Positions 2-56,354 of a DNA stretch of 64,000 nt are shown in pieces. How positions within the stretch are numbered: position 1 is the first letter of the stretch; every line of letters starts with the position of its first letter. The notes under the pieces were generated by a model. It ran no database searches. It had not been told where the DNA came from and worked only from the letters and a program-made list of their open reading frames with translations. Source of the stretch: Thermoanaerobaculales bacterium. GTDB taxonomy: Bacteria > Acidobacteriota > Thermoanaerobaculia > Thermoanaerobaculales > Sulfomarinibacteraceae. Both the position numbers and the translations under genes were made by a program. The DNA is taken from contig DAOPQC010000009.1 in assembly GCA_035358815.1 (NCBI GenBank), positions 2,405-66,404 on the forward strand, read 5' to 3'.

Positions 2-1492
2 TACGACCCGCACGCCCCCTACGCTCCGCCGCCGGAGCTCGCCGGCGCGAGCGCGCGCGCGCGCTACCTGGGCGAGGTGGCGTTCGTCGACCGCCAGATC
101 GGCCGCCTCCTCGCGGCGGCCGGCCAGCATGCGCCAGCGCTGCTCGTGGCCGCGGTCGGCGACCACGGCGAGGCGCTCGGCGAGCACGGCGAGCGCGGCC
201 ACGGGATCTTCCTGCATGGCGCGACGATCGAGGTGCCGATGATCCTGGCCGGGCCGGGCGTGCCACGGGGACGGGTGGTCGAGGGGCCGGTCGCGATCCG
301 CCGGCTGGCGGCGACCCTGCTCGCCGCCCTCGGTCAGGACGAGGGCCTGCCCGGCCCGCCGTTGCCGGGCGCCTCCGACGCGCCTGCCCCGCCGCCGCTG
401 CCGGTGTTCAGCGAGGCGACCATGCCGGCCGAGGTCTACGGCTGGGCGCCGCTCGCCGCGGTCACGGACGGGCGCTGGCGCCTCATCGCCGCCCCGCGCC
501 CGGAGCTCTACGACGTCGTGGCGGACCCGGGTGAGACCCGCAACCTGATCACCGACCGTCCCGAGGTGGCGGAGCCGCTGCGCGCCGCGCTGGAGGGGCT
601 GGCTTCCCGGCAGCCGGTCGCCGCTGCGGCGGCGGCGCAGCTCGACCGGGGCACTCGCGCCGCCCTGCTCGCCCTCGGCTACCTGGAGGCGGGGCCGGGC
701 TCGCCCACCGATGCCATCGACCCCAAGGACGGGGTCGGCTTGCTCGAGGACTTCGAGCGCGCCAAGAGCCTGCTGGCAACCGGGCGGGCCGCCGAGGCGA
801 GAGCGATCCTGGCAGGGCTGGTCGACCGCAACCCGTCGAACGTGCCGTTCCTGTCGCGGCTGGCAGAGGCCGCGCTGGCGGTCGGCGACGGCGAGGCGGC
901 GCTCGCCACCTGGGGTCGCGCGTCCGAGCTGCAACCGCGGTCGGAGTTCCTGCGGCTCGCGCAGGCCGACGCCTTGCGGCGGCTGGGGCGGGACGACGAG
1001 GCCCGCCGTGCGCTGCGCGGCGTGCTCGAGGTCGACCGGCGCAACGCCCCGGCGTGGCTCGGGCTCGCCGGCCTCGCCGGGGGCGCGGAGGAGGAGCTCG
1101 CGGTGCTGTCCGAGGCGATCGCGGCCGGGACCGACAGCATCGTGGTGCTGCTCCAGGCGGCGCGGCTCGAAGCCGGCCTCGGGCACGCCGCCGCGGCGAG
1201 CTCTCTGCTCGACCGCGCGGCGACCCTGATGCCCGGCGCCGCCGTGGTCTGGCTCGAGCGGGCGCGGCTCGACCAGGCATCGGGCCAGCTCGACGACGCA
1301 CTGGAGGCCTGCCGGCGCGCCGCCGAGGCCGAGCCGGCCGATCCCGAGACGGCCCTGTGCAGCGGACGGGTCTTCATCGCGCGCGGCGAGCCTTCTCGAG
1401 CGCGGCCCCACCTCCTGCGGGCCCAGGTCCTGGGCCGCGGCACTGCGGCCGAGGTCGAGGCGAAGGCCCTCCTCGAGTCGCTGGCCGAGTGA
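2..1492 (+). CDS. Sulfatase-family hydrolase fused to C-terminal TPR-like repeats (5' end cut by window edge)
   Basis: The frame of ORF 77..1492 stays open back to base 2 (YDPHAPYAPPPEL...). Sulfatase C-terminal core motifs DHGEALGEHGERGHGIFL and VPMILAGPG are present. The last ~240 aa are A/L/R-rich helical TPR-like repeats. Confidence 0.8.
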   Translation, partial: YDPHAPYAPPPELAGASARARYLGEVAFVDRQIGRLLAAAGQHAPALLVAAVGDHGEALGEHGERGHGIFLHGATIEVPMILAGPGVPRGRVVEGPVAIRRLAATLLAALGQDEGLPGPPLPGASDAPAPPPLPVFSEATMPAEVYGWAPLAAVTDGRWRLIAAPRPELYDVVADPGETRNLITDRPEVAEPLRAALEGLASRQPVAAAAAAQLDRGTRAALLALGYLEAGPGSPTDAIDPKDGVGLLEDFERAKSLLATGRAAEARAILAGLVDRNPSNVPFLSRLAEAALAVGDGEAALATWGRASELQPRSEFLRLAQADALRRLGRDDEARRALRGVLEVDRRNAPAWLGLAGLAGGAEEELAVLSEAIAAGTDSIVVLLQAARLEAGLGHAAAASSLLDRAATLMPGAAVVWLERARLDQASGQLDDALEACRRAAEAEPADPETALCSGRVFIARGEPSRARPHLLRAQVLGRGTAAEVEAKALLESLAE

Positions 1493-1647: not shown

Positions 1648-3258
1648 GTGACCGGCGAGCAGCCTTCGACCGGGTGCCAGAGCCCGGGGTCGAGCGGCGG
1701 CCCGAGCCGGCGCATCGCCGACTGGGTGTTCCTCGCCGCCGTCGTTGCGGTCGCCGCCGTGCTCCGCCTGTACCGGCTGGGTGCGGAGGGGCTGTGGTTC
1801 GACGAGGCCAACACGGCGGTGCTTGCCGGGCTCCCGGTGGGCGAGCTGCTCGAGCGGATCACGGTCGACAACCAGGCCCCCCTGTACTTCCTGCTGGTCA
1901 AGGCCGCCACGAGCATCCTGGGATGCTCCGAGTGGGCCGTCAGGTCGGTGTCGGCGGCATCAGGCATCGCGCTGGTGTGCCTGGCCTACGATGTCGGCCG
2001 CCGGTTGCTGTCGAGGGATGCCGCGCGCTGGGCCGCCATCCTGCTCGCCACCAGCCCGATGGCGATTCACTACAGCCAGGAGGCGCGCCCGTACGCGCTG
2101 TTGATGCTGCTCGTGCTGGCCGGTTTCCAGATCGCATGGAGCTTCGACGCGCGGCCGACGTTCGCTCGTGGGCTCGCTCTGGTGGCGGTGTTCCTGGCGG
2201 CGTGCCTGGCGCACAACATCGGACCGTTCTTCGTCGCCGGGCTCGCCCTGGCCAGTGTCTGCTCCGGGCGGCCCGACGCCCGCCGGCTGCGCGCGTGGGG
2301 CGCGGTCCTCGCGGCGACCGCCGTCGGCTACCTCGTCTGGCTCCCCAACCTGCTTCAGCAGGCCACTGGCATGGCTCACTCGTTCGCCTGGGCCCGCGGC
2401 ATCTGGGGCAGCGAGTTCCCGTACCAGATCCCCAGATCGCTGGCCGCGATGACGCACGGGTCGTTGGCGCCGATCCGCAACCGCGTGCCGGACATCGTGT
2501 GGCAGGCCTGGGTCGCCCTCGCGCTGTCGGGGCTGCTCTGGATCGGCGGCCTGCACCGCCGCGCGAGGCTCGCCGATCGGCGTGCGCCCTTGCTGCTGGC
2601 GCTCGCCGGCGTCACGCCACTGCTCGGCATGTGGCTCTACTCCGTCGTCTCCAGGTCGCCGATCTACCTGGTGGGACGAGTCGACAGCCCGGCTCTGCCG
2701 ATGCTCCTGCTGCTCACCGCGAGCGGCGCCGTGGCGATCAAGCCGGGCTGGAGGTGGCTCGGCCCGGGGGCGCTCATCGGCCTCGCCATCCTGCCGCTTC
2801 GGCTGCACCTGGGAATCGATTTCCGGTCGCAGGAACGGACAATGGCCCGCCTGGTCGAGGCCCAGCGTGGGGAAGGTGAGCCACTGATCACCACTGCATT
2901 CGACTGCAGCCTCGTCTACTACACGGATCTCCGGCACGGCGGCACGCTGGTGCTGTACCCGTCCGCGACCGAGCCCTTCCTGGGCTGGGTCGACTGGAGC
3001 AGGTACGACCCGGCAGCGCTCGAGGCGGACGCGGACGCGGTCGCGCTGCAGGCGATGGACCGGGCCCGTCAGAGCGAGTCTGGGAGGGTCTGGCTGCTGC
3101 TCCATCCCGATCCCAGGTACGCCGCGATCGCGACCGCGCTGGCGCGCCGGATGTCGCTGGCCGGCGAGCTGGACTTCGGGTACCTCGGCATCAAGCTGAT
3201 GGTGTACGAGCCGGCCGCGCCGCCCTCCAGGCGCGACGGCACGCTGCCGCAGCGATGA
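1648..3258 (+). CDS. Membrane glycosyltransferase, GT39/ArnT-PMT-like (GT-C fold)
   Basis: Only the C-terminal 536 aa of ORF 1054..3258 look protein-like. In-frame GTG at 1648. Many TM helices. The first loop LYRLGAEGLWFDEANTA carries the acidic DE motif typical of ArnT/PMT-type enzymes. Start is uncertain. Confidence 0.7.
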   Translation: MTGEQPSTGCQSPGSSGGPSRRIADWVFLAAVVAVAAVLRLYRLGAEGLWFDEANTAVLAGLPVGELLERITVDNQAPLYFLLVKAATSILGCSEWAVRSVSAASGIALVCLAYDVGRRLLSRDAARWAAILLATSPMAIHYSQEARPYALLMLLVLAGFQIAWSFDARPTFARGLALVAVFLAACLAHNIGPFFVAGLALASVCSGRPDARRLRAWGAVLAATAVGYLVWLPNLLQQATGMAHSFAWARGIWGSEFPYQIPRSLAAMTHGSLAPIRNRVPDIVWQAWVALALSGLLWIGGLHRRARLADRRAPLLLALAGVTPLLGMWLYSVVSRSPIYLVGRVDSPALPMLLLLTASGAVAIKPGWRWLGPGALIGLAILPLRLHLGIDFRSQERTMARLVEAQRGEGEPLITTAFDCSLVYYTDLRHGGTLVLYPSATEPFLGWVDWSRYDPAALEADADAVALQAMDRARQSESGRVWLLLHPDPRYAAIATALARRMSLAGELDFGYLGIKLMVYEPAAPPSRRDGTLPQR

Positions 3259-3568: not shown

Positions 3569-6307
3569 ATGTCCGAGCGTCTCACCCTGGACGGCAGGGA
3601 GGTTCCTTTCCGACCGGGACAGACGGTCCTGGAGGTAGCCCGGGAGAACCACGTCAGGATCCCAGCGCTGTGCTACCACCGCAAGACCGGTCCCGCGGGT
3701 CGGTGCCGGGTCTGCGTGGTCGAGGTCGAGGGCCAGCGCGGCCTGGCCACCTCCTGCAACCTTGCCGCCAGGGCGGGGATGGTCGTCCACACCGCCTCCG
3801 AGCGTGTCCTCGAGGTGCGGCGTATGGTCGTCAACCTGCTGCTCTCGAGCGGCGAGCACAACTGCCTCGCCTGCGAGCAGAACGGCCACTGCGAGCTCCA
3901 GGACGCGGCGTACCAGCTCGGCATCGAGACGCCGGCCTTCGTCCTGTCGGGGCCCAAGGCCGAGGTGGACGACTCGAGCGAGATGATCGTCTTCGACCAC
4001 CGCAAGTGCATCCAGTGCGGCCGCTGCATCGCCGCCTGCAACCACGTGGTGGTGAACGAGGTTCTGGGCATGGCCGAGCGGGGCTTCGAGGCCAGGGTCG
4101 TGTGCGACCTCGACCAGCCGATGTCCCGGTCGACCTGCGTCCAGTGCGGCGAGTGCGTTCAGCTCTGCCCGGTGGGCGCGATCATCGACAAGAAGGCCGT
4201 CGGACGGGGCCGCGCCTGGGAGCTCGAGCAGGTCAACACCACCTGCCCCTACTGCGGGGTCGGCTGCCAGGTCACCCTGCACGTGGACCGCGGCGCGAAC
4301 CGGATCGTCCGGGTCACCGGCCGGGAGGTCCCGCCGAACGACGGCATGCTGTGCGTGAAGGGGCGCTTCGGGTACGAGTTTCCGTCGAGCCCCAAGCGGC
4401 TCACCCAGCCGATGGTCCGCAAGAACGGGAAGCTCGAGCCGGTGTCTTGGGACGAGGCGCTCGACTACACGGCGCAGCGGATCGGCGACATCGTCGCCAA
4501 GCACGGGCCCGACGTCTTCTCGGCCTTCGGGTCGGGGCGCATCACCAACGAGAACAACTACGCGATCGCGAAGTTCACGAGGGCGGTCATCAAGACCAAC
4601 AACGTCGATCACTGCGCTCGAACGTGACACGCCCCCACTGTCGCCGGTCTGGCGACAAGCTTCGGCTCGGGCGCGATGACCAACAGCATCCAGGAGCTCC
4701 AGGACGCTGACCTGATCTTCGTGATCGGCTCCAACATGACCGAGGCCCACCCGGTCATCTCGTACTACGTCAAGCGGGCCGTCAACAAGGGGGCGACCCT
4801 GATCGTGAACGATCCGCGGCGGACCGACCTCTGCCGGTGGGCAGCCCACCATGTCCAGATCAAGGTCGGCTCGGACATCGCGTACATCAACGGCCTGATC
4901 AACGAGATCTTCAAGAACGGGTGGGCGAACGAGGACTTCATCAGGGAGCACACCGAGAACCCGGACGAGATGCGCGCCTGGGCCGAGTCGTACCCCGTGG
5001 AGCGCGCCAGCGAGATCTGCGGCGTGCCGGTGGCCAGGATGAAGGAGATCGCCCGGCTGCTCGGCACGGCCAAGTCGGTGAGCGTCTGCTACACCCTGGG
5101 CATCACCGAGCACATCTGCGGCACCGACAACGTGAAGACGCTCGCCAACCTGCAGATGGTCCTGGGCAACCTCGGCAAGCACGGCGCCGGGCTGAACCCG
5201 CTGCGTGGGCAGAACAACGTCCAGGGAGCCTGCGACATGGGCGCCCTGCCCAACGTGTTCCACAACTACCAGCCGGTCACCGACGCCAAGGCGATCGAGA
5301 AGATGGAGAAGGACTGGGGCGTCACCGGCCTGTCGAGGACCGCCGGCTACAAGATGCCCACCATGCTCCACAAGGCGCTCGACGGCGGCACCAGGGTGCT
5401 CTACTGCGTTGCGGACAACACGGTCCAGACCGAGCCGCACATGGCGCACACGATCAAGGAGCTGCAGGCGCTGGAGCTCCTGGTGGTCACCGACATCTTC
5501 CCGAACCTGACCACCGCCCTGGCGCACGTGGTCTTTCCGGACTACAGCTGGGGCGAGGAGGAGGGCACGTTCTCGAACACCGAGCGGCGCGTGCAGCGCG
5601 TGCGCCGGGCCCTCACCCCGCCCGAGGGCTGCCGGCCGAACTGGTGGATCCTCCAGGAGCTCGGCAAGCGGCTGGGCTACGACCTCGGGTTTACGTCGGC
5701 GCGGGCGATCTGGGAGGACATGCGCCGGACCGCGACCAGCTACGCCGGCATCACTCACGAGCGCATCGAGGACGTGGGCCTGCAGTGGCCGTGCCCGACG
5801 CTCGAGCACCCCGGGACGGCGTTCCTGCACAAGGACGGCAAGTTCTCCCGCGGCAAAGGGCTGTTCTGCAAGACCGACTGGATCCCACCGGCCGAGGTCG
5901 TGGACGAGGAGTACCCGCTGGTGCTGTCGACCGGCCGCCGGCTCTGGCACTACCACTCCGGCACGCAGACCCGGAACTCGGTCGGGCTCGAGAACCTCTT
6001 CCCCGAGGAGCTCCTGGAGATGCACCCGACCGATGCCTCTCCGCTCGGGATCGCGAGCGGCGATCTGGTCAAGGCGGTGAGCCGCCGCGGCGAGGTCACG
6101 CTGCGCGCCTGGGTCAACGAGCGCGCGGCGCCCGGCCTGTGCTGGATGGCCTTCCACTTCGAAGAGGCGTGCGCCAACGTGCTCACCATCGATGCGTTCG
6201 ATCCGGTCACCGAGACGGCCGAGTACAAGGTGTGCGCGATCCGGGTCGAGAAGGTCCGGGACGGCGAGGCCCCGATGGAGGACCTCCGACGCCAGGCCCG
6301 GCCCTGA
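3569..6307 (+). CDS. fdhA: Formate dehydrogenase catalytic (alpha) subunit, selenocysteine-containing, NuoG-like N-terminus (912 aa with UGA=Sec at 4625-4627)
   Basis: ORFs 3569..4627 and 4676..6307 share one frame (both start = 2 mod 3). The peptide across the TGA reads [28 protein letters not shown], the conserved Sec/Cys active-site context of FdhF/FdnG. N-terminal 2Fe-2S (CYHRK..CRVC) and 4Fe-4S motifs (CIQCGRCIAAC, CVQCGECVQLCP, CPYCGVGC) are present. RBS is gaaaggagg, 8 nt upstream of the ATG. Confidence 0.9.
4625..4656 (+). promoter_or_regulatory. UGA(Sec) codon plus bacterial SECIS-like hairpin
   Basis: TGA at 4625-4627. A perfect 6-bp stem, gtcgcc (4640-4645) / ggcgac (4651-4656), starts 12 nt downstream. 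Its apical loop GGUCU is the same loop sequence as in the E. coli fdhF SECIS. Confidence 0.75.
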
Positions 6308-8992: not shown

Positions 8993-10267
8993 ATGGGAAC
9001 CGAGGCACTGGAGAAGAAGCGCTGGGTGATCGCGATCGCCGCCGTCGTCATGCAGCTGTGCCTGGGCACGGTCTACGCGTGGTCGGTGTTCAAGATCCCG
9101 CTCAAGCAGGCCCATGGCTGGGCCGAGACCCCGACCCAGGTCACCTTCATGATCTGCATCGGCATGATCGGCCTCTCCGCCGCCTTCGGCGGGATGCTGG
9201 TCGACAAGAAGGGGCCGCGGTTCGTGGCCACGCTCGGCGGCATCCTGTTCGGGGTCGGCACGCTGCTGGCGGGCCTGGCCGATCAGGTCGGCAACCTGTG
9301 GCTGCTCTACCTCGGCTTCGGCCTGATCGCCGGCCTGGGCAACGGCTTCGGCTACGTCACGCCGATCGCCACCCTGATCCGCTGGTTCCCGGACAAGCGC
9401 GGCCTGGTGACTGGCCTCGCAGTCATGGGCTTCGGCGCCGGCGCGTTCTTCATGGGCCGCATCGCGCCGCAGATGATCGCCAGCCACCAGGTCAAGGACC
9501 AGGCCGGCGCGGTGATCGCCTCCGGCGTCGCTCCCACCTTCTACATCTGGGGCCTCATCTTCCTGGTGGCGGTGACGGCCGCCGCCCAGCTGTTCAAGAA
9601 CCCGCCCGCCGGCTGGCTGCCGGCCGGCTTCACGCCGCCCGCCAAGACGGTGTCGGCGGCCGACTCGCGCAACCTGGCCGAGGCCGTCCGCACGCCGCAG
9701 TGGTGGATGCTGTGGGCCATGCTGTTCCTCAACATCTCGGCCGGGCTCGGGCTGCTGTCGCAGCTGTCGCCCATGGCCCAGGAGTTGCTCAAGGTCAAGA
9801 TCAGCGACCCGGCCAAGCTCGCGATCGCCGGCGGCACCATCCTCGCCATTGCCTCGATCTTCAACGGCCTCGGCCGGCTGTTCTGGGCCTGGCTGTCCGA
9901 CGGCATCGGCCGCAAGGCGGTGTTCGTGACCATGTTCATCACCCAGGCCATCCTCTACGTGTTCCTGCCCCAGGTGGCCACGGCGACGCTGTTCGCGATC
10001 ATCGCCTGCTACCTGCTGGCCTGCTATGGCGGCGGCTTCGCCACCATGCCGGCCTTTGCCGCGGACAGCTTCGGGCCGGCCTGCATCGGCCGGGTCTACG
10101 GCACCATGCTCACCGCCTGGGGCGTGGCCGGGGTGGTCGGGCCCCTGGTCTTCGCCCAGCTCAAGAAGCAGCAGGCCCTGTACGTGGCCGCCGGCCTGCT
10201 GACCGTCGGCCTGGTGATCGCCATCGCCTATCGCCGTCCGGCGCCCAAGCCGGTTGCGGCGACGTAG
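8993..10267 (+). CDS. MFS transporter, oxalate/formate antiporter (OFA) family
   Basis: ATG 8993 follows aaggaaaggggga. 12 TM-type hydrophobic profile. N-terminal LGTVYAWSVF motif characteristic of OFA-family MFS proteins. Confidence 0.8.
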   Translation: MGTEALEKKRWVIAIAAVVMQLCLGTVYAWSVFKIPLKQAHGWAETPTQVTFMICIGMIGLSAAFGGMLVDKKGPRFVATLGGILFGVGTLLAGLADQVGNLWLLYLGFGLIAGLGNGFGYVTPIATLIRWFPDKRGLVTGLAVMGFGAGAFFMGRIAPQMIASHQVKDQAGAVIASGVAPTFYIWGLIFLVAVTAAAQLFKNPPAGWLPAGFTPPAKTVSAADSRNLAEAVRTPQWWMLWAMLFLNISAGLGLLSQLSPMAQELLKVKISDPAKLAIAGGTILAIASIFNGLGRLFWAWLSDGIGRKAVFVTMFITQAILYVFLPQVATATLFAIIACYLLACYGGGFATMPAFAADSFGPACIGRVYGTMLTAWGVAGVVGPLVFAQLKKQQALYVAAGLLTVGLVIAIAYRRPAPKPVAAT

Positions 10268-21691: not shown

Positions 21692-21784
21692 GTTTGCGGC
21701 TCGCGCCCCCGGCGCACCGGCGACTTTCGGCAAGAAAAAGGCGGCCCCCGGAGGGGCCGCCCGTCTCAGCCTGCTGGCCGGTGA

Positions 21785-28192: not shown

Positions 28193-29020
28193 TCAGTCAG
28201 GTACGTGGGAGACGACGAACGGTTCGTCCCCCTTCATGAAGCTCACCGCCAGCACGGTCATCTGCTCGTCCAGGATCAGGACCTTGGTGGAGAGCTCGCG
28301 GCCGGGAATCGAGACCACGATCCGGTGCTCGCCGGCGGGGACGTGTGAGATGTTCAGGTTCATGGTGGTCTTCTCGCTGGTCTTGCCCAGGAACTTGACG
28401 GTGCAGCGTGAGGGCTTCGAGGTTAACCGCAGCGAGCCCCAGCCCGGGTTGGCGGCCACGATCCTCGCGGTCTTGAGGTTGCCGTGGACCGCGACCGTGG
28501 CCTGGGGCTGGACCGTCACCACCTCGGTCACGGTCTCGTAGCCGGGCTTGGCGAAGCGGACCGTGTGCTCGCCGGCGGCGACCCCGCCGATGGTCAGCTG
28601 CGGGGAGGTCTTGGTGTGGGGCACGCCGTTGACCTCGACGACGCAGTTCTGCGGGGCGGAGGTGACGATCAGGGTGCCGACCGCCTGCGGTGCCTCGGGG
28701 CTCTCGGTCTCGCCGGGGGCGGCGGGCGCGGGCACCGGCACGAACTCGCCGACCGTGACCTCGATCGGGACCTGCCCGACCAGGACCTCGAAGCTCTGCG
28801 GCGCAAAGCCGTCCTTCTCCACCCGCACGGTGTGGAGGCCGCGGGCGACGTCCATCAGGTAGGCGCCGTCGTCCAGCCGGCTCGAGATCCCGGCGAGCTC
28901 GCCGTCGAGGTAGACCCGGAGGCCGGGCTCGCACAGCACCTGGATGTCGCCCGCCACGGCCACCGTGGCTGCCGCCGCGCAGATCATGACGATCAGAGCG
29001 AGCAATCCCCAAGGTCGCAT
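28193..29020 (-). CDS. PEGA-domain protein (three PEGA-like beta-sandwich repeats)
   Basis: Signal peptide MRPWGLLALIVMICAAA. Repeated pattern ...V.VDG...G.TP..L..L..G.H.V...K.GY/F... (for example HTVRVEKDGFAPQSF and HTVRFAKPGYETV). Confidence 0.7.
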   Translation of the reverse strand: MRPWGLLALIVMICAAAATVAVAGDIQVLCEPGLRVYLDGELAGISSRLDDGAYLMDVARGLHTVRVEKDGFAPQSFEVLVGQVPIEVTVGEFVPVPAPAAPGETESPEAPQAVGTLIVTSAPQNCVVEVNGVPHTKTSPQLTIGGVAAGEHTVRFAKPGYETVTEVVTVQPQATVAVHGNLKTARIVAANPGWGSLRLTSKPSRCTVKFLGKTSEKTTMNLNISHVPAGEHRIVVSIPGRELSTKVLILDEQMTVLAVSFMKGDEPFVVSHVPD

Positions 29021-29069
29021 GGGTCCTCCCAAAAGGCGTGGCGCCCCTCAGTGTAGCGCGGCGGCCCCC

Positions 29070-29278
29070 TCGCCCGCACCCGCGTCCGCGCCCGCTTCCG
29101 CGCCCCCGCCGTTGGGATGTCTCTCGTTCCCGTTCCCGTCCCCGTTCCCGTACCCGATGGCCGTTCGGGGTGGATTGAGTTCGTACGTGAAATTTGGAGA
29201 TTGCTGCGACGTCTGGGCGGCGTGCGGCGATCCGGGAACGGGATCGGGGTGGGGCCCTGGACCCTGACCCCGATCCCC
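29070..29278. repeat. Mosaic intergenic repeat locus A (beta C-array, 34-nt alpha module, unique core, G-arm, 11-bp hairpin)
   Basis: CCCGCN-type array at 29070-29110. Alpha module cgttcccgttcccgtccccgttcccgtacccgat at 29125-29158. Inverted partner atccgggaacgggatcggggtgggg at 29230-29254. Perfect hairpin gggatcggggt (29240-29250) / accccgatccc (29267-29277). Confidence 0.85.
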
Positions 29279-29370
29279 CAACTCCTGGTCAGGCGAATGC
29301 GCTGCAGCGACCCGGAAGCCGGAGGGCGACTGACCTCTGAGGATCGTAGACCGCACCGGGAGGGGGCGCG

Positions 29371-31455
29371 CTACTCCTCCTCCTCCTCGCGCTTGCCGGC
29401 GGCGGCGATGATCTTCTCCTGCAGGTGCTTGGGCACCTCGTCGTAGCGGTTGAACTCCATGTGGAAGTCGCCGCGGCCGCCGGTGATCGAACGCAGGGTC
29501 GCCGCGTAGGTCAGCATCTCGGCCAGCGGCACCTGGGCCTTGACGGTGGTGGTGCCGCCTTCGGTGTCCATGCCCTGGACGCGGCCGCGCCGCGAGTTGA
29601 GGTCGCCCATGACGTCGCCCATGCACTCCTCGGGGATGTAGGCCTCGATCTGCATGATCGGCTCGAGCAGGGTCGGGTTGCACTGGGAGGCGCACTCCCG
29701 GAACGCCTTGCGGCCCGCGATCTTGAACGCCATCTCCGAGGAGTCCACCGAGTGCTCCTTGCCGTCGAGCAGGGTGACCTTGAAGTCGACCATCGGGTAG
29801 CCGGCGAGCACGCCGCGCGCCGCGGCCTCCTGGACCCCCTTGTCGACGGCCGGCCGGTAGCCTTGAGAGATCGAGCCGCCGTAGATCTTGTCGACGAACT
29901 CGTAGCCGTTGCCCCGGTTCGGCTCCATGCTGATCCGGCACTCGGCGAACTGGCCCGAGCCGCCGGTCTGCTTCTTGTGGCGCGTCGTCACGTCGGCCGA
30001 GCCGGTGATGGTCTCCCGGTAGGGGACCTTGGGCTGGTGGAGGTTGACGTCCACCTTGTAGCGCTTCTTGAGCCGGCCCACCACCACCTCGACGTGGAGC
30101 TGGCCGGTGCCGGAGATCAGGAGCTCCTTGGTCTGCGGGTCACGGCCGACCGCGATCGTCGGGTCCTCGTCCCGGATCCTGGCCAGCGCGGCCGCCAGCT
30201 TGTCCTCGTCACCCTTCGACTTGGGCTCCAGCGCGAAGCTGATCGAGGCCTCGGGGATCGGCACCGCCGCGACCCGGATCGACTTCTTGGGCGGGCACAG
30301 GGTGTCGCCGGTGTGGGTGTCCTTGAGCTTGGGGACGGCGCCGATGTCGCCGGCCGCGAGCGCCTCCACGTGCTCCAGCTCCTTGCCCTGGACCACCGAC
30401 AGCGCGCCGAGGCGCTCGGAGCCGTCGCGGGTTGCGTTGGCGACGGTGGCGTCGGAGGCGATGCCGCCTGACAGCACCCGCAGCAGCGAGATCCGTCCGG
30501 TGTACGGGTCGGAGATGGTCTTGAAGACGTAGGCGACGAAGGGGGAGTCGGCGGAAACTGCGAGCTCCTGCTCCTCGCCGTCGACGGTGGCGGCGAACCG
30601 GCGCCAGCTCGGGCTCGGCGCGAGGTCGACCAGCGCGTCCATGAGCGGCTGGACGGCGATGTTCTTGCCCCCGGCCAGCGCGAACACCGGACACAGCGCG
30701 CGCGACTCGACGGCCGCCTTCAGCCCCTTGCGGAAGGTCTCCGGTTCGAGGCCGCCGCTCTCGAGGTAGCTCTCCATGAGCGCCTCGTCCTGCTCGGCCA
30801 CCATCTCGAACAGGGCCTCGCGCGCCGCGGCCACGTCGTCGGCCATCGCGGCCGGGATGGCGACCTCGGCGGCCTTGCCGCTCTCGTCGTGCGGCCAGGT
30901 GAAGGCCTTGCCGCTGACCAGGTCGACCACCCCTTCAAACGCTGCCTCCTCGCCGATCGGGAGCTGGACCGGGATCACCTCGCGGCCGTACTTCTGCTGC
31001 AGCGACGCGACCGTGCGCGAGAACGACGCGCGGTCCCGGTCCAGCAGGTTGACGGCGAAGAGCAGCGGCAGCGAGGAGCTGGCGGCCGCCTTCCACAGCT
31101 TGTCGGTCTGGACCTCGGGGCCGGCAACCGCCGACACCAGCATCAGCGCCGCGTCGGCCACCCGCAGCCCCTGCAGCGCGTCGGTGGTGTAGATCCCGTA
31201 CCCGGGCGTGTCGACGAGGTTGACCTTGGTCCCCATGCGGTCGAAGTGGGCGACCGCGGTGTTGATCGTGATCTTGCGCTCCTGCTCGTCCTCGTCGAAG
31301 TCGGTCGTCGTGTTGCCGTCCTCCACCTTGCAGAGCCGATTGACGACGCCCGCGTCGAACAGCATGGCCGACACCAGCGAGGTCTTCCCGGTGTGGGAGT
31401 GCCCGATGACCGCGACGTTGCGGATCGTGTCTGTGGTGTAGGTGTTCGCGCTCAT
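29371..31455 (-). CDS. fusA: Elongation factor G family GTPase (stand-alone paralog, not in an rpsL-rpsG-tuf context)
   Basis: G1 AVIGHSHTGKTS, G3 DTPGY, and EF-G domains II-V throughout (694 aa). Confidence 0.9.
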   Translation of the reverse strand: MSANTYTTDTIRNVAVIGHSHTGKTSLVSAMLFDAGVVNRLCKVEDGNTTTDFDEDEQERKITINTAVAHFDRMGTKVNLVDTPGYGIYTTDALQGLRVADAALMLVSAVAGPEVQTDKLWKAAASSSLPLLFAVNLLDRDRASFSRTVASLQQKYGREVIPVQLPIGEEAAFEGVVDLVSGKAFTWPHDESGKAAEVAIPAAMADDVAAAREALFEMVAEQDEALMESYLESGGLEPETFRKGLKAAVESRALCPVFALAGGKNIAVQPLMDALVDLAPSPSWRRFAATVDGEEQELAVSADSPFVAYVFKTISDPYTGRISLLRVLSGGIASDATVANATRDGSERLGALSVVQGKELEHVEALAAGDIGAVPKLKDTHTGDTLCPPKKSIRVAAVPIPEASISFALEPKSKGDEDKLAAALARIRDEDPTIAVGRDPQTKELLISGTGQLHVEVVVGRLKKRYKVDVNLHQPKVPYRETITGSADVTTRHKKQTGGSGQFAECRISMEPNRGNGYEFVDKIYGGSISQGYRPAVDKGVQEAAARGVLAGYPMVDFKVTLLDGKEHSVDSSEMAFKIAGRKAFRECASQCNPTLLEPIMQIEAYIPEECMGDVMGDLNSRRGRVQGMDTEGGTTTVKAQVPLAEMLTYAATLRSITGGRGDFHMEFNRYDEVPKHLQEKIIAAAGKREEEEE

Positions 31456-32758: not shown

Positions 32759-33045
32759 TCAATTCCGGGCTCAATTCCGGGCTCCAGACCCCGTTTCGAT
32801 TCCGGACTCTGGGCCGGTGCCCGTCCCCGCTTCCGCTTCCCCTTCCGCTTCCGCGCCCGGACGGTGCTCAGGACGCGGGAAAGCTGCGGGGGTCTTCGAC
32901 TTGCCACCGTGCTGGGCGGTTCGCTTCCAATGACCTACCCCCCAGGTCATCGGTGACCTTGTCGGCCCACACGGGCCCTGGGGGTGCTCAGAATGACCAC
33001 GGACAGAGTCGGAAGCGGGCGCGGAAGCGGGCGCGGACGCGGGCC
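32759..33045. repeat. Mosaic intergenic repeat locus B (12-nt tandem, C-arm, 150-nt core with hairpin, G-arm)
   Basis: tcaattccgggc x2 at 32759-32782. C-arm CGCTTCC-type at 32818-32858. Core hairpin atgacct/aggtcat at 32930-32950. G-arm at 33011-33045. Its bases 33017-33043 are the exact reverse complement of 29079-29105. Confidence 0.85.
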
Positions 33046-34500: not shown

Positions 34501-34627
34501 TCGAGGCCTCCTTGACGGTCACTCTACCAGCCCGGATCCGGGCTCACAAGCTCTTGAGAGCTGGTCTCGGCGGGGCGGTGTGGAATCGACGCGCGATGTG
34601 CCCGATGTCACTGGAGGAGAGGATATA

Positions 34628-34768
34628 GGGGATAGGGAATAGGGGATAGGGGAGAGGGGAGAGGGGAGAGGGAACAGGGGATAGGGGAGAGGGAGTAGGG
34701 GAGAGGGCCTAGCTGCCTTGTGGGGTAGCCATCCTGGCTGCCTTGTGGGGTAGCCATCCTGGCTGCCC
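34628..34768. repeat. Mosaic intergenic repeat locus C (12 G-tracts in GGGGA(T/G)A heptamer array + 25-nt tandem repeat)
   Basis: 34628-34707 holds 12 runs of G3-4 separated by 3-4 nt. 34713-34762 is ctgccttgtggggtagccatcctgg x2 (period 25) plus a partial third unit. Confidence 0.9.
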
Positions 34769-35398: not shown

Positions 35399-35434
35399 AG
35401 AAAAAACGAAACCCCGCGCGCGGCGGGATTTCGT
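35399..35434 (-). terminator. Rho-independent terminator
   Basis: The minus strand reads acgaaatcccgcc-gcgc-gcggggtttcgt followed by TTTTTT. That is a ~12-bp GC-rich stem and a 6-T run. Confidence 0.75.
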
Positions 35435-35514
35435 CATGGTGGGTATCCCCACCCGGACTTCTTCAGTGGGTTTCGCGGCCGTAAAGTCCGTTGAACACCC
35501 GCGGTCCGAAGGGA
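35400..35514 (-). ncRNA. Candidate ~115-nt structured RNA or attenuating leader (family unknown)
   Basis: Bracketed by the promoter and terminator above. Internal helices: gtcc/ggac, cggactt/aagtccg (7 bp), and ggtggg-gata-cccacc. No convincing ORF. Confidence 0.35.
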
Positions 35515-35521
35515 CACCTCC

Positions 35522-35550
35522 AATATGTGTGCACGCCGCGGCTGTGTCAA
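35522..35550 (-). promoter_or_regulatory. Candidate sigma-70-type promoter
   Basis: On the minus strand: TTGACA (35550-35545), a 17-nt spacer, then CATATT (35527-22). Located inside the cdd/trmH-like gap. Confidence 0.45.
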
Positions 35551-36125: not shown

Positions 36126-36278
36126 GGGAACGGGAACGGGGACGGGAACGACAGCTGGCCGTTGTGGGGTCGCCATCCTGGCTGCCTTGTGGGGTAGCCA
36201 TCCTGGCTGCCCGGAAGCGGGCGCGGGCGAGGGGGCGGGCGGGGGCCCTACCCCCTATTCCCTACATCCCATCCCCTC
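36126..36278. repeat. Mosaic intergenic repeat locus D (alpha G-array, 25-nt tandem, beta G-array, inverted gamma array)
   Basis: gggaacgggaacggggacgggaac at 36126-36149. 36153-36212 is ~95% identical to 34711-34768. ggaagcgggcgcgggcgagggggcgggcggggg at 36213-36245. C-rich ccctaccccctattccctacatcccatcccctc at 36246-36278. Confidence 0.9.
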
Positions 36279-44153: not shown

Positions 44154-45944
44154 TCAGGGGCGCACGAGCCAGCCGGCGGCGGTCCCGTCCTCGAACCCGC
44201 TGCCGAAGATCAGCGAGCCCGGGCCGGAGGGAGTCGGAGTCGGCGGCGGGGTGGGCGTGGCCACCGGCGTGCTGGTCGGCGTGGCGGTGGGCGGTACGGG
44301 CGTCGTCGTCGGAGTCGGGGTGGGAGTGTGGGTCGGCGGCGGCGGGGTGAGTGTGGGTGTGCTGGTCGGCGGCACCGGCGTCGCGGTGTCAGTGGCGGTG
44401 GCAGTGGGTGTCGGGGTGCTGGTCGGCGGCAGCGGCGTCGCCGTGGCGCTTGGGGTCGGCGTGCGGGTCGGTGTGGCGGTCGCGCTGCTGGTCGAGGTCG
44501 GGGTGCGGGTCGGTGTGGCGGTCGGCGGCACCGGCGTCGCTGTGGGGCTCGGCGTCGCCGTGCGGGTGGGCGTCGCCGTGGCGGTCGCGGTGTTGCTCGG
44601 GGTGCGGGTCGGCGTGGGCGTCGCGGTCCGGGTGGGCGTCGGCGTGCTGGTGCGAGTGGGCGTCGCCGTCGGCCCGCTGGTCACCGACAGCTCGAGCCGG
44701 TAGAGCTGGGCGCTGTCGGTGGCGTCGCCGGCGAGCTCGACGAAGTAGGTTCCCGGCCCGCTGGGCAGTGGCACGCTCGGCAGCGCCTCGGGCAGGCCGG
44801 CGCCGTTGGCGTCCGCGAACGCGAGCTCGGTGGTCCCGTTGACGTCGAGCACCCGCAGCGACAGGTCGTGGATGGCGAGCGAGTCGAACGAGCTCCCCGC
44901 GGTGCAGCTGCCGTTCGGGTTCTGGGGGCCGCTCAAGTAGGTCCAGCCGGTCGGCGTGACGGTGATCGAGAGCGAGGCGCCGCTGCCGACGGTGAGGCTG
45001 TAGTCGTCGTAGTCGGAGTCGTCGTCGACCGACAGGTTGTCGATGGTGAGCAGGCCCGTCGGCGTCCCCAGGGGGTACGCCGTGGACGGGTCGTCGTCGT
45101 GCTCGGCGCCGTCGCCGTAGCCGCGGTTGGCGGCCAGGATGTCGTCGTGCTGGGGCCCGTCGAAGGCGCTCGAGTAGTAGGGCTCCATCAGCTTGGTCTG
45201 GTTGACCGGGCAGACATGCTGCAGCCCGAGACCGTGGCCGTGCTCGTGGGCGACCACGTTGCGCAGCCGCAGCGAGTTGCCGGTGGTCACGGAGTAGAAC
45301 GAGTCGCCGGTGTCGATGACCATGTCCCCGACGTCGGGGTAGAAGTTGTAGCCGAGGATGCCGGAGTTGCCGTCGATGGTATGGCCGCCGAAGCGCACGT
45401 CGCCCCGCACGCCGAGTGATCCCGCCGAGTTGACGAAGGCCGCGCCGTCATCGCTCGGCTGGTAGAGGTAGCTGATGCCGGTCAGCTCGCCCCAGCGATC
45501 CAGCACCTGCTGGAGCAGCGCCAGCCAGGTGGCCTCGTCGCCGTAGATCCCGGTCAGGAAGGCGCGCAGGTTGCTTGGCGAGCTCGGCTCACCGGCGTAG
45601 CCGGGGATCGCGGTGCCGTCGGGGACGACGCTCCAGGTCAGGGTGGTGGGGTCGCCCTGGCCGAGCCCGCTGCCGTTGCTGGCCGTGCTCGACCAGCGGT
45701 TGGAGTCCGGGAACTGGTACTCGCCGAGCGGCGGGGCGGAGAGCGAGTGGGTCACCCGGGCCAGGGCGGCCTTCGCGATCGCCTGCTCGACGTACCACTG
45801 CGGGGTGCCGTCCTTGAAGCACAGCGCCGGCGCGGGCGGGGGGCCCGGCTGGGCCGGCGGGCGGTCCGCTGCGGCAGCGCAGGCGGCCGCGAGGAGCATC
45901 GCGATTCCGAGCGCCGCGGGCGCCCCGGGGCGTGCCGTGCTCAT
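44154..45944 (-). CDS. Secreted metzincin (matrixin/M10-like) zinc protease with PPC-like domain and ~150-aa Pro/Thr linker
   Basis: ATG 45944. Signal peptide ...[10 protein letters not shown]. Zinc site [13 protein letters not shown] (HExxHxxGxxH). Pro/Thr repeats. C-terminal tail [19 protein letters not shown]. Confidence 0.8.
44229..44680 (-). repeat. Intragenic low-complexity Pro/Thr (TPTxT) repeat-coding region
   Basis: Encodes [55 protein letters not shown]... The mirror-frame ORF 44065..44703 (GV-rich) is its artefact. Confidence 0.85.
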
Positions 45945-51973: not shown

Positions 51974-52410
51974 GGGGATAGCGATGAGGGGATAGGGGCT
52001 AGGGCCCCTGCCCGCCCGCTGCCGGCTGCACGGACGGCTTCGTTCCCGTTCCCGTTCCCGTGCCCGCGCCGATCCGCCTCCGCGCGCGACGTCGTTCCCG
52101 TTCCCGTTCCCGTTCCCGAACCCGCGCCCGCTTCCGCGCCCGGTTCCGAGCGACGTTTCGCTCCCCTTCCCGTTCCCGTCCCCGTTCCCGATCCCGTGTC
52201 CGCTCCCGCTCGTTCGCTCCGTCCTCGAGAGCGCTTCGCGCCGATTCTCTGGAAGCGCTCCCCGAGGGTGCCACCTTTGGCGATTTCGGGTCCTGAGCAA
52301 TTTGTCAGGAGCATCGTCGTCCCGAAATCGCCAAAGATGGCACGCCCGCGGGAGGCGCTTCCCTCGCTCTCTCCTCGTCCCCGGGGAGCGGAAGCGGGTG
52401 CGGGCGCAGC
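51974..52410. repeat. Mosaic intergenic repeat locus G (gamma G-array, three C-rich hexamer arrays, 113-nt imperfect palindrome, beta G-array)
   Basis: Gamma array at 51974-52004. C-arrays at 52041-52070, 52093-52147 and 52164-52212. Palindrome at 52251-52363 with 23-nt arms (52268-52290 / 52321-52343, 1 mismatch) and apical hairpin tcctga/tcagga. gagcggaagcgggtgcgggcgc at ~52385-52410. Confidence 0.9.
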
Positions 52411-55684: not shown

Positions 55685-55759
55685 GGGAGGTTAGCTCAGG
55701 GGTAGAGCACCTGCCTTACACGCAGGGAGTCGTGGGTTCAAATCCCCCACCTCCCACCA
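55685..55759 (+). tRNA. tRNA-Val (anticodon TAC)
   Basis: Cloverleaf: acceptor gggaggt/acctccc, D-arm gctcaggggtagagc, anticodon stem cctgc/gcagg with loop ctTACac, T-arm gtggg-ttcaaat-cccac region, encoded CCA. Confidence 0.9.
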
Positions 55760-55780
55760 CCCCTGAGACGGCACGATTGC

Positions 55781-55857
55781 GGGGTCGTAGTTCAGCTGGT
55801 TAGAACGCCGGCCTGTCACGCCGGAGGTCGAGGGTTCGAGTCCCTTCGGCCCCGCCA
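55781..55857 (+). tRNA. tRNA-Asp (anticodon GTC)
   Basis: Acceptor ggggtcg/cggcccc, D-arm gttcagctggttagaac, anticodon stem ccggc/gccgg with loop ctGTCac, T-arm gaggg-ttcgagt-ccctt, discriminator G, encoded CCA. Confidence 0.9.
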
Positions 55858-55872
55858 ACCCAGCCAAACCGA

Positions 55873-55900
55873 GCCGCCCTTCGGGCGGCTTTTCGTTTGT
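55873..55900 (+). terminator. Rho-independent terminator after tRNA-Asp
   Basis: gccgccc-ttc(g)-gggcggc followed by ttttcgtttgt. Confidence 0.75.
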
Positions 55901-56006
55901 CTGGTGGCGGGGCCGAAGGGACTCGGTCACCGCGGAGCCAGCGGGCGGACGTACGCCGCCCACCGCCCTCTCCGGCCCGGCTGACGCCGGGCCTGCGACC
56001 CCCACG
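55886..56006. repeat. 121-nt direct repeat, copy 1 (contains inverted copy of tRNA-Asp 3' end)
   Basis: Base-for-base identical to 56234-56354 (checked by eye over all 121 nt). 55905-55925, tggcggggccgaagggactcg, is the reverse complement of tRNA-Asp 55837-55857. Confidence 0.95.
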
Positions 56007-56078
56007 GCTACGTCCGCACTCCGCTGCCTATCGCGGTGTGCAAGTCCCTTCCCTCGTGACCCCGGCGACCCTGGCGGG

Positions 56079-56130: not shown

Positions 56131-56233
56131 GCGCGCTGTCACGGGCAGCCCGCGTTGCGGCCTGCCGGTTCCAGCCTGCGCAGCTGCCGGCGGTGTCGAG
56201 CCCTTCCCTCGTGACCCCGGCGACCCTGGCGGT

Positions 56234-56354
56234 CGGCTTTTCGTTTGTCTGGTGGCGGGGCCGAAGGGACTCGGTCACCGCGGAGCCAGCGGGCGGACGT
56301 ACGCCGCCCACCGCCCTCTCCGGCCCGGCTGACGCCGGGCCTGCGACCCCCACG
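56234..56354. repeat. 121-nt direct repeat, copy 2
   Basis: Identical to 55886-56006 at an offset of 348 nt. Preceded by the 32-nt block 56201-56232, identical to 56046-56077. Confidence 0.95.

Follow-up and report, generated by a model that had tools for sequence, protein, structure and literature searches.

A patchwork of short tandem repeats between the EF-G-like and PEGA genes of a Thermoanaerobaculales bacterium: relation to known G-tract repeats and a possible role at a transcription-unit boundary

G-tract tandem repeats and Locus A

G-rich simple sequence repeats (SSRs) able to form quadruplexes have been described in Xanthomonas (GGGAATC) and in Nostoc and other cyanobacteria as short tandemly repeated repetitive (STRR) sequences (GGGGAYT) (Rehm et al. 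2015, PMC4692102). These repeats are intergenic, preferentially of about four units and largely transcribed; they fold into quadruplexes in vitro, and no function has been found for them. Their length varies between species with the repeat type preserved, and 70–75 inverted pairs are present per Xanthomonas genome (PMC4692102). The element considered here, Locus A, occupies the 350-nt spacer between a gene for a protein resembling elongation factor G (EF-G) and a PEGA gene, both on the minus strand, in a 64-kb window of Thermoanaerobaculales DNA (the whole stretch that was analysed, with an overall GC content of 70.8%). It combines a G-rich hairpin, a short C-rich array, a unique core and an array of G-rich hexamers, all of them located in Table 1.

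By every sequence-level criterion Locus A belongs with the Xanthomonas and Nostoc SSRs, which are its closest described class. As in those genomes, tandem units of 6–9 nt with a G3–4 tract are repeated at least four times, typically in arrays of 4–5 units, are dispersed with a strong bias towards non-coding DNA, and occur both as single arrays and as inverted pairs, with stem-loops that compete with quadruplexes. The arrays of relatives likewise vary in length and sequence while keeping their type, and the hairpin of Locus A itself contains GGGGATC units. Unlike the described SSRs, the dominant unit here is a hexamer (GGGAAC/GGGGAC) in a mosaic with CGGAAG/CGGGCG and heptamers, many of the related arrays carry only GG, and the host belongs to an acidobacterial order in which the repeats are known from sequence alone. 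Furthermore, the inverted pairs follow the order C-array, core, G-array around unique cores of 45–170 nt (13 of 14 pairs among the matches listed in the metagenome survey below), whereas the accessible text of the SSR study terms the Xanthomonas pairs 'convergent' (PMC4692102). A literature search found no description of such repeats in Thermoanaerobaculia, and with the present family this poorly understood class of G-tract repeats, known from Xanthomonas and cyanobacteria, gains a member in an uncultured order of Acidobacteriota.

Other repeat families offer a more partial likeness. Repetitive extragenic palindromic (REP) sequences, REP doublets forming hairpins (REPINs) and miniature transposable elements with inverted repeats (MITEs) are also intergenic and multi-copy, with inverted arms around a short spacer, and Locus A shows terminal inverted arms in this MITE/REPIN-like architecture. 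Hairpins in mRNA, a unit of about 70 nt with a conserved core that is copied at least three times in one related genome, and a 25-nt repeat headed by GTAG beside the arrays are further points in common with REPs and REPINs. However, the arms are tandem hexamers and not a single imperfect palindrome, and, in contrast to MITEs and REPINs, the cores of the GGGAAC pairs are unrelated and most arrays are solitary (50 of 64 among the matches listed). No target-site duplication, REP-associated tyrosine transposase (RAYT) or transposase was seen within the 64 kb, where no test was aimed at them. In Beggiatoaceae, intergenic direct repeats of the heptamer TAACTGA are described, in the accessible part of the source, as having a lineage-specific abundance and a suspected, unproven regulatory role (PMC4679880). 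They resemble the present family as short intergenic repeats abundant in one lineage. As far as that part of the source describes them, they differ from Locus A in having AT-rich units, in being direct only and without G-tracts, and in belonging to an unrelated lineage (PMC4679880).

The repeat-family identity of Locus A is well supported. On balance, we consider the locus to be a local patchwork of lineage-specific intergenic short tandem repeats at a boundary of transcription units; its probable role there is to end the EF-G transcript or to insulate it.

The repeat family in the window and in related genomes

What the initial annotation took for a specific regulatory device is one member of a repeat family found genome-wide. 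With at most two mismatches, GTTCCCGTTCCCGT has 29 occurrences in the window, compared with 0.69 expected, and arrays are found in the spacers at about 29.1, 32.8, 34.6, 36.1, 38.6, 49.8 and 52.0–52.2 kb. The units are 6–7 nt long and are built on a CGG or GGG anchor (GGGAAC, GGGGAC, GGGGATC, CGGAAG/CGGGCG). On the G-rich strand the module reads G3N3G3N3G3N3G3, a canonical G-quadruplex motif that fits four G3 tracts with loops N1–7. The window holds 20 such quadruplex motifs, 19 of them in non-coding DNA (3.9 ± 1.9 expected from dinucleotide shuffles, with a maximum of 9) and one in coding DNA (8.5 ± 3.1 expected); three canonical motifs, with G4Hunter magnitudes of 1.4–1.9, fall within the 350 nt of the Locus A spacer. 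Strictly periodic G3 arrays number six in 14 kb of this population, in comparison with four in 310 kb of other loci above 62% GC. The three spacers within the PEGA–TonB cluster downstream of Locus A are free of arrays. The CGGAAGCGGGCG-type module of Locus A is also present at 33010, 36212 and 38647, as well as upstream of PEGA in two orthologous loci, L090 and L095 (loci in other assemblies are designated by L and a number).

These arrays are variable within the population. The heptamer array at 34.6 kb is a variable-number tandem repeat (VNTR), 35 nt (five units) longer in one assembly (L082, 2641-2961), where the surrounding spacer is identical; in another assembly three T>C changes lie inside the array and the remaining spacer is again identical. 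Array length changes, most simply by slippage, and turnover between species is fast.

A second dispersed repeat adjoins the hexamer and heptamer arrays. It is a 25-nt tandem unit, CCTGGCTGCCTTGTGGGGTAGCCAT, found in the window at 34708-34767 and 36162-36211, which is REP-like, with a GTAG head and a small hairpin, GGTAGCCA-TCC-TGGCTGCC. The same unit is present in L090 (2707-2813) and in L094 (3172-3190), where it lies just upstream of the −10 box of PEGA.

EF-G proteins identical to that of the window are annotated as Thermoanaerobaculales bacterium, phylum Acidobacteriota. The PEGA protein served to find the orthologous loci, at 60–84% identity. PEGA is the first gene of a conserved cluster that continues with transglutaminase/TPR, CarboxypepD_reg/TPR and TonB-dependent receptor genes, and the orthologous loci are syntenic in the order S20, purC, EF-G, spacer, PEGA, transglutaminase/TPR, CarboxypepD_reg/TPR and TonB receptor. 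The Locus A spacer is 100% identical in eight independent assemblies with the same or nearly the same EF-G, so it is not an assembly artefact. Having no differences, these assemblies are uninformative on constraint, and since the next relative, L086, is already remodelled, no covariation analysis is possible. L086 is the nearest diverged orthologue (PEGA 84% identical) and carries different arrays and a different core, with a heptamer-built palindrome and a CCCGTG.../CGGAGA... pair around a core of 32 nt. A TCTCCG.../GGGAAC pair flanking a conserved core of 33 nt is shared by L090 and L094, and a CTTCCG/CGGAAG pair by L090 and L095. The window, L090, L092/93 and L094 all carry a sense-strand (GGGAAC)n array about 100–130 nt upstream of the PEGA start codon; its junction with a preceding GCCAT (GCCAT before CGGG) is limited to the window, L090 (as GCCGT) and L094, TTT preceding CGGG in L092/93. 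The spacers of the more distant L097 and L098 hold no arrays.

The core sequence of Locus A is not conserved in L086, L090 or L094. As far as the sequences tell, what the orthologous spacers keep is the class of element and not its sequence, the invariant across array types being CGG/CCG every 6 nt. Conservation of the pairing between the arms, which the initial annotation had offered as a check on its fold, was examined in related genomes and fails at the level of sequence, L086 being different and only the class of architecture persisting.

Beyond these loci, metagenome contigs were scanned for exact GGGAACGGGGACGGGAAC matches, contigs of at least 62% GC being usable, and all figures of this survey are among the matches listed. 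Many high-GC contigs carry (GGGAAC)n arrays. Of the 64 usable arrays, 14 are accompanied by an inverted partner no more than 250 nt away and the other 50 are solitary; in 13 of the 14 pairs the partner lies 5′, which gives the order C-array, core, G-array (two-sided binomial p ~0.002). All inverted pairs, whether of the window or of the orthologues, follow this order too. Core lengths range from 45 to 170 nt, mostly about 70–105 nt. When the arrays were masked, blastn detected core similarity only between orthologous pairs; a MITE origin of the GGGAAC pairs was rejected on this ground, as unrelated cores are not those of a recently spread MITE. For the solitary arrays, with the G-rich strand taken as '+', a crude gene caller based on the GC content of third codon positions (GC3) gave 15 (--), 7 (++), 7 (+-) and 6 (-+) arrangements of the neighbouring genes, a preference for the C-rich strand in mRNA that is at most mild. 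The near-invariant C-then-G polarity of the inverted pairs and the exclusion of arrays from intra-operon spacers are new observations that can be tested.

The most serious alternative is that these repeats are selfish or neutral DNA without function at this site, produced by slippage or by copying of the REPIN/MITE kind and accumulating harmlessly between transcription units. We regard this as possible, although somewhat unlikely. Rapid turnover between species and copy-number polymorphism within the population, as in the 34.6-kb array, are expected of such DNA, and so are arrays in every type of spacer, including those at 36.1 kb beyond a terminator. Propagation as a unit, in both orientations, of the kind found for the ~70-nt element of L090 would moreover explain the fixed C-to-G polarity. 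However, some array pair is kept by each of the clade's orthologous EF-G/PEGA spacers even though their sequences turn over, and the absence of arrays from intra-operon spacers, together with their depletion in coding DNA, implies an effect when they are transcribed or translated. Unrelated cores in the GGGAAC pairs, unlike those of a recently spread mobile element, and the identity of the Locus A spacer in eight independent assemblies also speak against this alternative.

The L090 element is of the form [CTTCCG]3-AGCCCGATGCGAGGCTCTTGA...GAGCAGT-[CGGAAG]. It has a conserved core and occurs three times in 21 kb, at 292-315(-), 4454-4477(+) and 9845-9868(+), with sharp borders and in both orientations, and again in L095 at 3126-3149; no element of this type is present in the 64-kb window. 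Repeated with a conserved core, it is a propagated REPIN/MITE-like unit, and some members of the wider family are therefore spread as units.

Table 1. Features of Locus A, its flanking genes and other arrays of the family, in window coordinates
Feature	Position	Strand	Remarks
EF-G-like gene (context)	31455..29371	minus	all EF-G Pfam domains matched; stop TAG 29373..29371
46-nt stem-loop	29236..29281	minus	perfect 11-bp stem GGGATCGGGGT/ACCCCGATCCC, 29277..29267 / 29250..29240, extending to ~16 bp
C-rich short array CCCCACCCCGATCCCGTTCCCGGAT ('right arm' of the initial annotation)	29230..29254	minus (sense)	used by both the hairpin and the long-range pairing; G-quadruplex motif on the plus strand, G4Hunter +1.76
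Unique core, 71 nt	29159..29229	strandless	sense strand rich in C and poor in G; includes 29175-29206, with 41% GC
(GGGAAC/GGGGAC/GGGTAC)x5 hexamer array ('alpha module' of the initial annotation)	29125..29158	minus (sense)	pattern G3N3G3N3G3N3G3; G4Hunter −1.38 on the plus strand
G-rich 6/12-nt repeat tract, CGGAAGCGGGCG type	29061..29110	minus	directly upstream of the −10 box; periods 6, 12, 18
TACACT, probable −10 box of the PEGA operon	29055..29050	minus	conserved in orthologues; putative function
PEGA gene	29020..28193	minus	ATG 29020..29018; Shine–Dalgarno (SD) sequence GGAGGA 29029..29024
CCGCTT and CGGAAGCGGGCG arrays	32827 and 33010		
GGGGATA/GGGGAGA heptamers	34616-34707		
(CGGGAA)n	36125		
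(CCGTTT)n with (CGGGNA)n	38566 and 38629		
(CGGGAA)n	38728		
Almost perfect inverted pair	49787/49893		folds at −84.9 kcal/mol, z = −6.4
Long arrays	52041-52208		

Folding, promoter and the boundary of transcription units

The hexamer module, the two arms, the AT-richer core and the 11-bp hairpin described in the initial annotation are all present in the spacer. Read as (CGTTCC)n, the module (29125-29156/58) has a period of 6, 5.3 copies and 88% matches, and its inverted partner lies at 29233-29248, with arms of 14 nt (93%) and 16 nt (88% complementarity) that are 82–94 nt apart. The hairpin is composed of four G-rich heptamers, GGGGATC GGGGTCA GGGTCCA GGGCCCC (29279..29251), folded on the next C-tract. 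Perfect hairpins of at least 11 bp occur at only four places in the 64 kb.

The predicted energy of the 46-nt hairpin as RNA is −30.8 kcal/mol (z = −3.16), a value equalled by 2 of 300 shuffles. For long-range pairing of the arms, assessed on the 141-nt element, z is −0.79, and 67 of 300 shuffles fold equally well; the corresponding values are −1.36 for a 181-nt region and +1.14 for the whole 350-nt spacer. In the predicted ensemble the pairs of the hairpin stem have probabilities of 0.82–1.0, 10 of the 11 reaching at least 0.82 on either strand, and the hexamer module pairs only with the non-overlapping segment 29229-29239, in shifted registers. Breaking the hairpin would cost 12–14 kcal/mol. 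The hairpin is stable and dominant in this predicted ensemble. As the right arm and the hairpin overlap at 29240-29249, alternative pairings are formally possible, and the initial annotation had proposed mutually exclusive foldings. With the hairpin winning by such a margin, and the helices able to coexist through a register shift, this exclusion is formal only. No Rfam family matched at the gathering score, the best sub-threshold hits being models of microRNA hairpins (23–27 bits, compared with a gathering score of 70). Since such structures arise from the repeat family everywhere, spacer hairpins and 'alternative pairings' in this lineage should not be annotated as dedicated riboregulators.

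Both flanking genes are on the minus strand, so the sense transcript is that of the minus strand. Along it, RNA polymerase leaving the EF-G stop would meet the G-heptamer array on its C-tract (the hairpin), the C-rich 71-nt core, the (GGGAAC)5 array, the CGGAAGCGGGCG-type G-rich tract and then the TACACT −10 box, the SD sequence and the ATG. The hairpin is GC-rich, of about 16 bp, and is placed some 90 nt past the EF-G stop and upstream of the next promoter; in this, and in the C-rich, G-poor 80 nt that follow it, Locus A resembles intrinsic and Rho-dependent terminators. In two related genomes, EF-G and PEGA are separated by an inserted PIN_10 / HTH_66-DUF433 toxin–antitoxin pair on the opposite strand (L092 8374-9452, L094 1780-2837). 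These insertions, and a conserved −10-like box that PEGA keeps even where the upstream gene differs, mark the spacer as a boundary of transcription units, in agreement with the initial annotation, and make a role as terminator or insulator positionally plausible.

The patch may act in several ways. The hairpin, lacking a U-tract, could end the EF-G transcript or stabilise its 3′ end, possibly with the help of Rho; the G-tract arrays would place quadruplex- or hairpin-capable DNA upstream of the promoter of the PEGA operon itself, and the repeat tract may shield that promoter from read-through. No canonical terminator was found after EF-G in this genome. Terminators made of a hairpin and a U-tract are used elsewhere in it, after the TonB-receptor gene, the FecR gene and tRNAs, and the PEGA cluster ends at a canonical terminator (21762..21739). 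In relatives of lower GC content a canonical U-tract terminator follows EF-G directly. If transcription-unit boundaries are indeed marked or enforced by the arrays, these would serve as a useful sequence-only guide to operon structure in genomes where canonical terminators are largely lacking.

Short-period arrays recur at the 3′ end of the EF-G gene with entirely different units. In the more distant relatives L001 and L009 (61–62% GC), AT-rich heptamer arrays (GGAATTA and CGAAATT) lie in the first ~35 nt after the EF-G stop and are followed by a canonical U-tract terminator; in L004, likewise more distant (61–62% GC), (CCGGTC)n lies ~130 nt after the EF-G stop, past its terminator.

The promoter of the PEGA operon is probably outside the repeat element, on its downstream side. 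The six closest orthologues align at a GCGYTA[C/G]ACTG block that lies 30–40 nt ahead of the PEGA start codon; L097 and L098, whose upstream gene differs, still carry TAGACT or TACACT, so that TA[C/G]ACT is present in all eight orthologues. To judge from this conservation, TACACT at 29055..29050 is probably the −10 box. A similar box, TAGAGT, precedes an OmpA-family gene, and TACACT, TATCCT and TATACT precede open reading frames (ORFs) on metagenome contigs. A scan of 28800-29600 for sigma-70 sites detected no consensus match (−35/−10 spaced by 16–18 nt) inside the element. The suggestion of the initial annotation that the element carries the PEGA promoter is not supported, given the conserved box downstream and the lack of a sigma-70 consensus within.

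GGAAC is a typical −35 motif of extracytoplasmic function (ECF) sigma factors. An ECF promoter was nevertheless rejected, since it would need a G-array followed by CGT about 16–17 nt downstream, whereas the observed order is C to G with cores of 45–170 nt. A small ORF in the core (plus-strand ATG 29158, 37 codons) was also discarded, as the core is not conserved in orthologous spacers. In the minus strand of the window, a perfect 16-nt palindrome, AGCCCGGATCCGGGCT (34530-34545), is located ~3 nt upstream of the TAGAGT box of the OmpA-family gene.

Several observations weigh against a boundary patch that ends or insulates the EF-G transcript. It is position alone that points to termination or insulation. 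A terminator scan of 28800-29600 returned no terminator, and the hairpin stem is followed by GUUCCCGGAUCGCC and not by a U-tract, so the initial annotation was right about a plausible position but the element is not a canonical intrinsic terminator. At 36.1 kb the arrays come after a canonical terminator, where the DNA is probably untranscribed, and the family therefore need not act as a terminator. Arrays are found in every type of spacer, divergent ones included. Many arrays of relatives carry only GG (CGGAGA, CGGAAG), which means that quadruplex potential is not the unifying property. At 29244..29167 (~80 nt) the sense strand looks like a site for Rho loading, with a C/G ratio of 2.62 (99.8th percentile); the ratio on the antisense strand is 2.39, however, and the skew of divergent spacers in L092 and L094 is just as extreme, so that it is probably a side effect of the arrays and gives no specific evidence of Rho loading. 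A conserved Rho utilization (rut) signature on the sense strand was rejected for this reason, the C>G bubbles being as strong on antisense and divergent DNA and the sense strand of L086 being without one. Finally, a replacement of canonical terminators by paired arrays was considered and rejected. Among the matches listed in the metagenome survey, such terminators are equally rare at paired (1/13) and solitary (5/63) arrays, and the test does not discriminate.

A broader version of the boundary role, which we consider improbable, is that the fixed-polarity modules are an undescribed class of bidirectional terminator or insulator that has no U-tract and replaces canonical terminators, which are rare in these Thermoanaerobaculales genomes. 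Such a module would read the same from either direction: the unpaired C-rich array would emerge first and let Rho load, and the G-rich array would follow and snap into a long hairpin or a G-quadruplex roadblock.

Less probable explanations and additional observations

The G3N3 arrays might regulate the PEGA promoter, or block polymerases, as G-quadruplex or i-motif DNA (or RNA). The three canonical motifs of the spacer, the fivefold enrichment of motifs in non-coding DNA with depletion in coding DNA, and the in vitro folding of the analogous Xanthomonas and Nostoc repeats (PMC4692102) agree with this proposal. However, the orthologous arrays have GG only (CGGAGA in L086; CGGAAG in L090 and L095), the G-rich strand is found in both orientations relative to genes, strong Watson–Crick hairpins compete with the quadruplex, and no function was found for the model repeats (PMC4692102). 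Such an explanation is unlikely.

Slightly less likely still are binding sites for a nucleoid-associated protein or regulator that reads CGG every 6 bp and thereby organises or insulates promoters. The invariance of CGG/CCG at period 6 across array types would be accounted for, and the arrays do adjoin conserved −10 boxes. There is no candidate protein and the proposal is pure inference; moreover, a 6-bp period mismatches the helical repeat and heptamer arrays coexist with the hexamer ones.

It is very doubtful that the AT-richer core holds a promoter (for PEGA, an antisense transcript or a small RNA), or that the copy number of the arrays phase-varies a surface-protein operon. In AT content, 29175-29206 ranks within the top 0.13% of the window's 32-mers, and the other clusters of this rank are at gene 5′ ends. 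There is no sigma-70-like match in the core, where the best site found by eye is TTGAGT-N16-GAGATT (7/12); the core is not conserved in L086, L090 and L094, and the conserved −10 box lies elsewhere. As for phase variation, the operon downstream of Locus A codes for outer-membrane proteins and another array is a VNTR, but Locus A is invariant in eight assemblies and arrays also flank housekeeping genes such as those for S20 and dCMP deaminase. A riboregulatory switch, in which the hairpin and the long-range helix would be exclusive conformers controlling read-through into PEGA, is scarcely credible: the C-tract 29240-29249 does enter both helices, but the hairpin is favoured by 12–14 kcal/mol, a shift of register lets the two helices form together, the long-range pairing does not outdo shuffled sequence, the arrangement is absent from L086, no Rfam family is reached at the gathering score and the U-tract is lacking.

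Apart from the G-tract family, other elements are present in the window. Between the dCMP-deaminase and SpoU-methylase genes (35550..35405, minus), a promoter-like site, TTGACA-17-CATATT, is followed ~90 nt later by a 13-bp hairpin and a T-tract, which could represent a small RNA or a short leader. At 44240-44670 lie long, GC-rich tandem repeats whose periods are 99, 57, 42 and 12 nt. Just downstream of two tRNA genes (55685-55854) there is a 125-nt direct repeat with 99% identity between its copies (55882-56006 / 56230-56354), and a 41-nt C-tract motif is repeated at 56046 and 56201.

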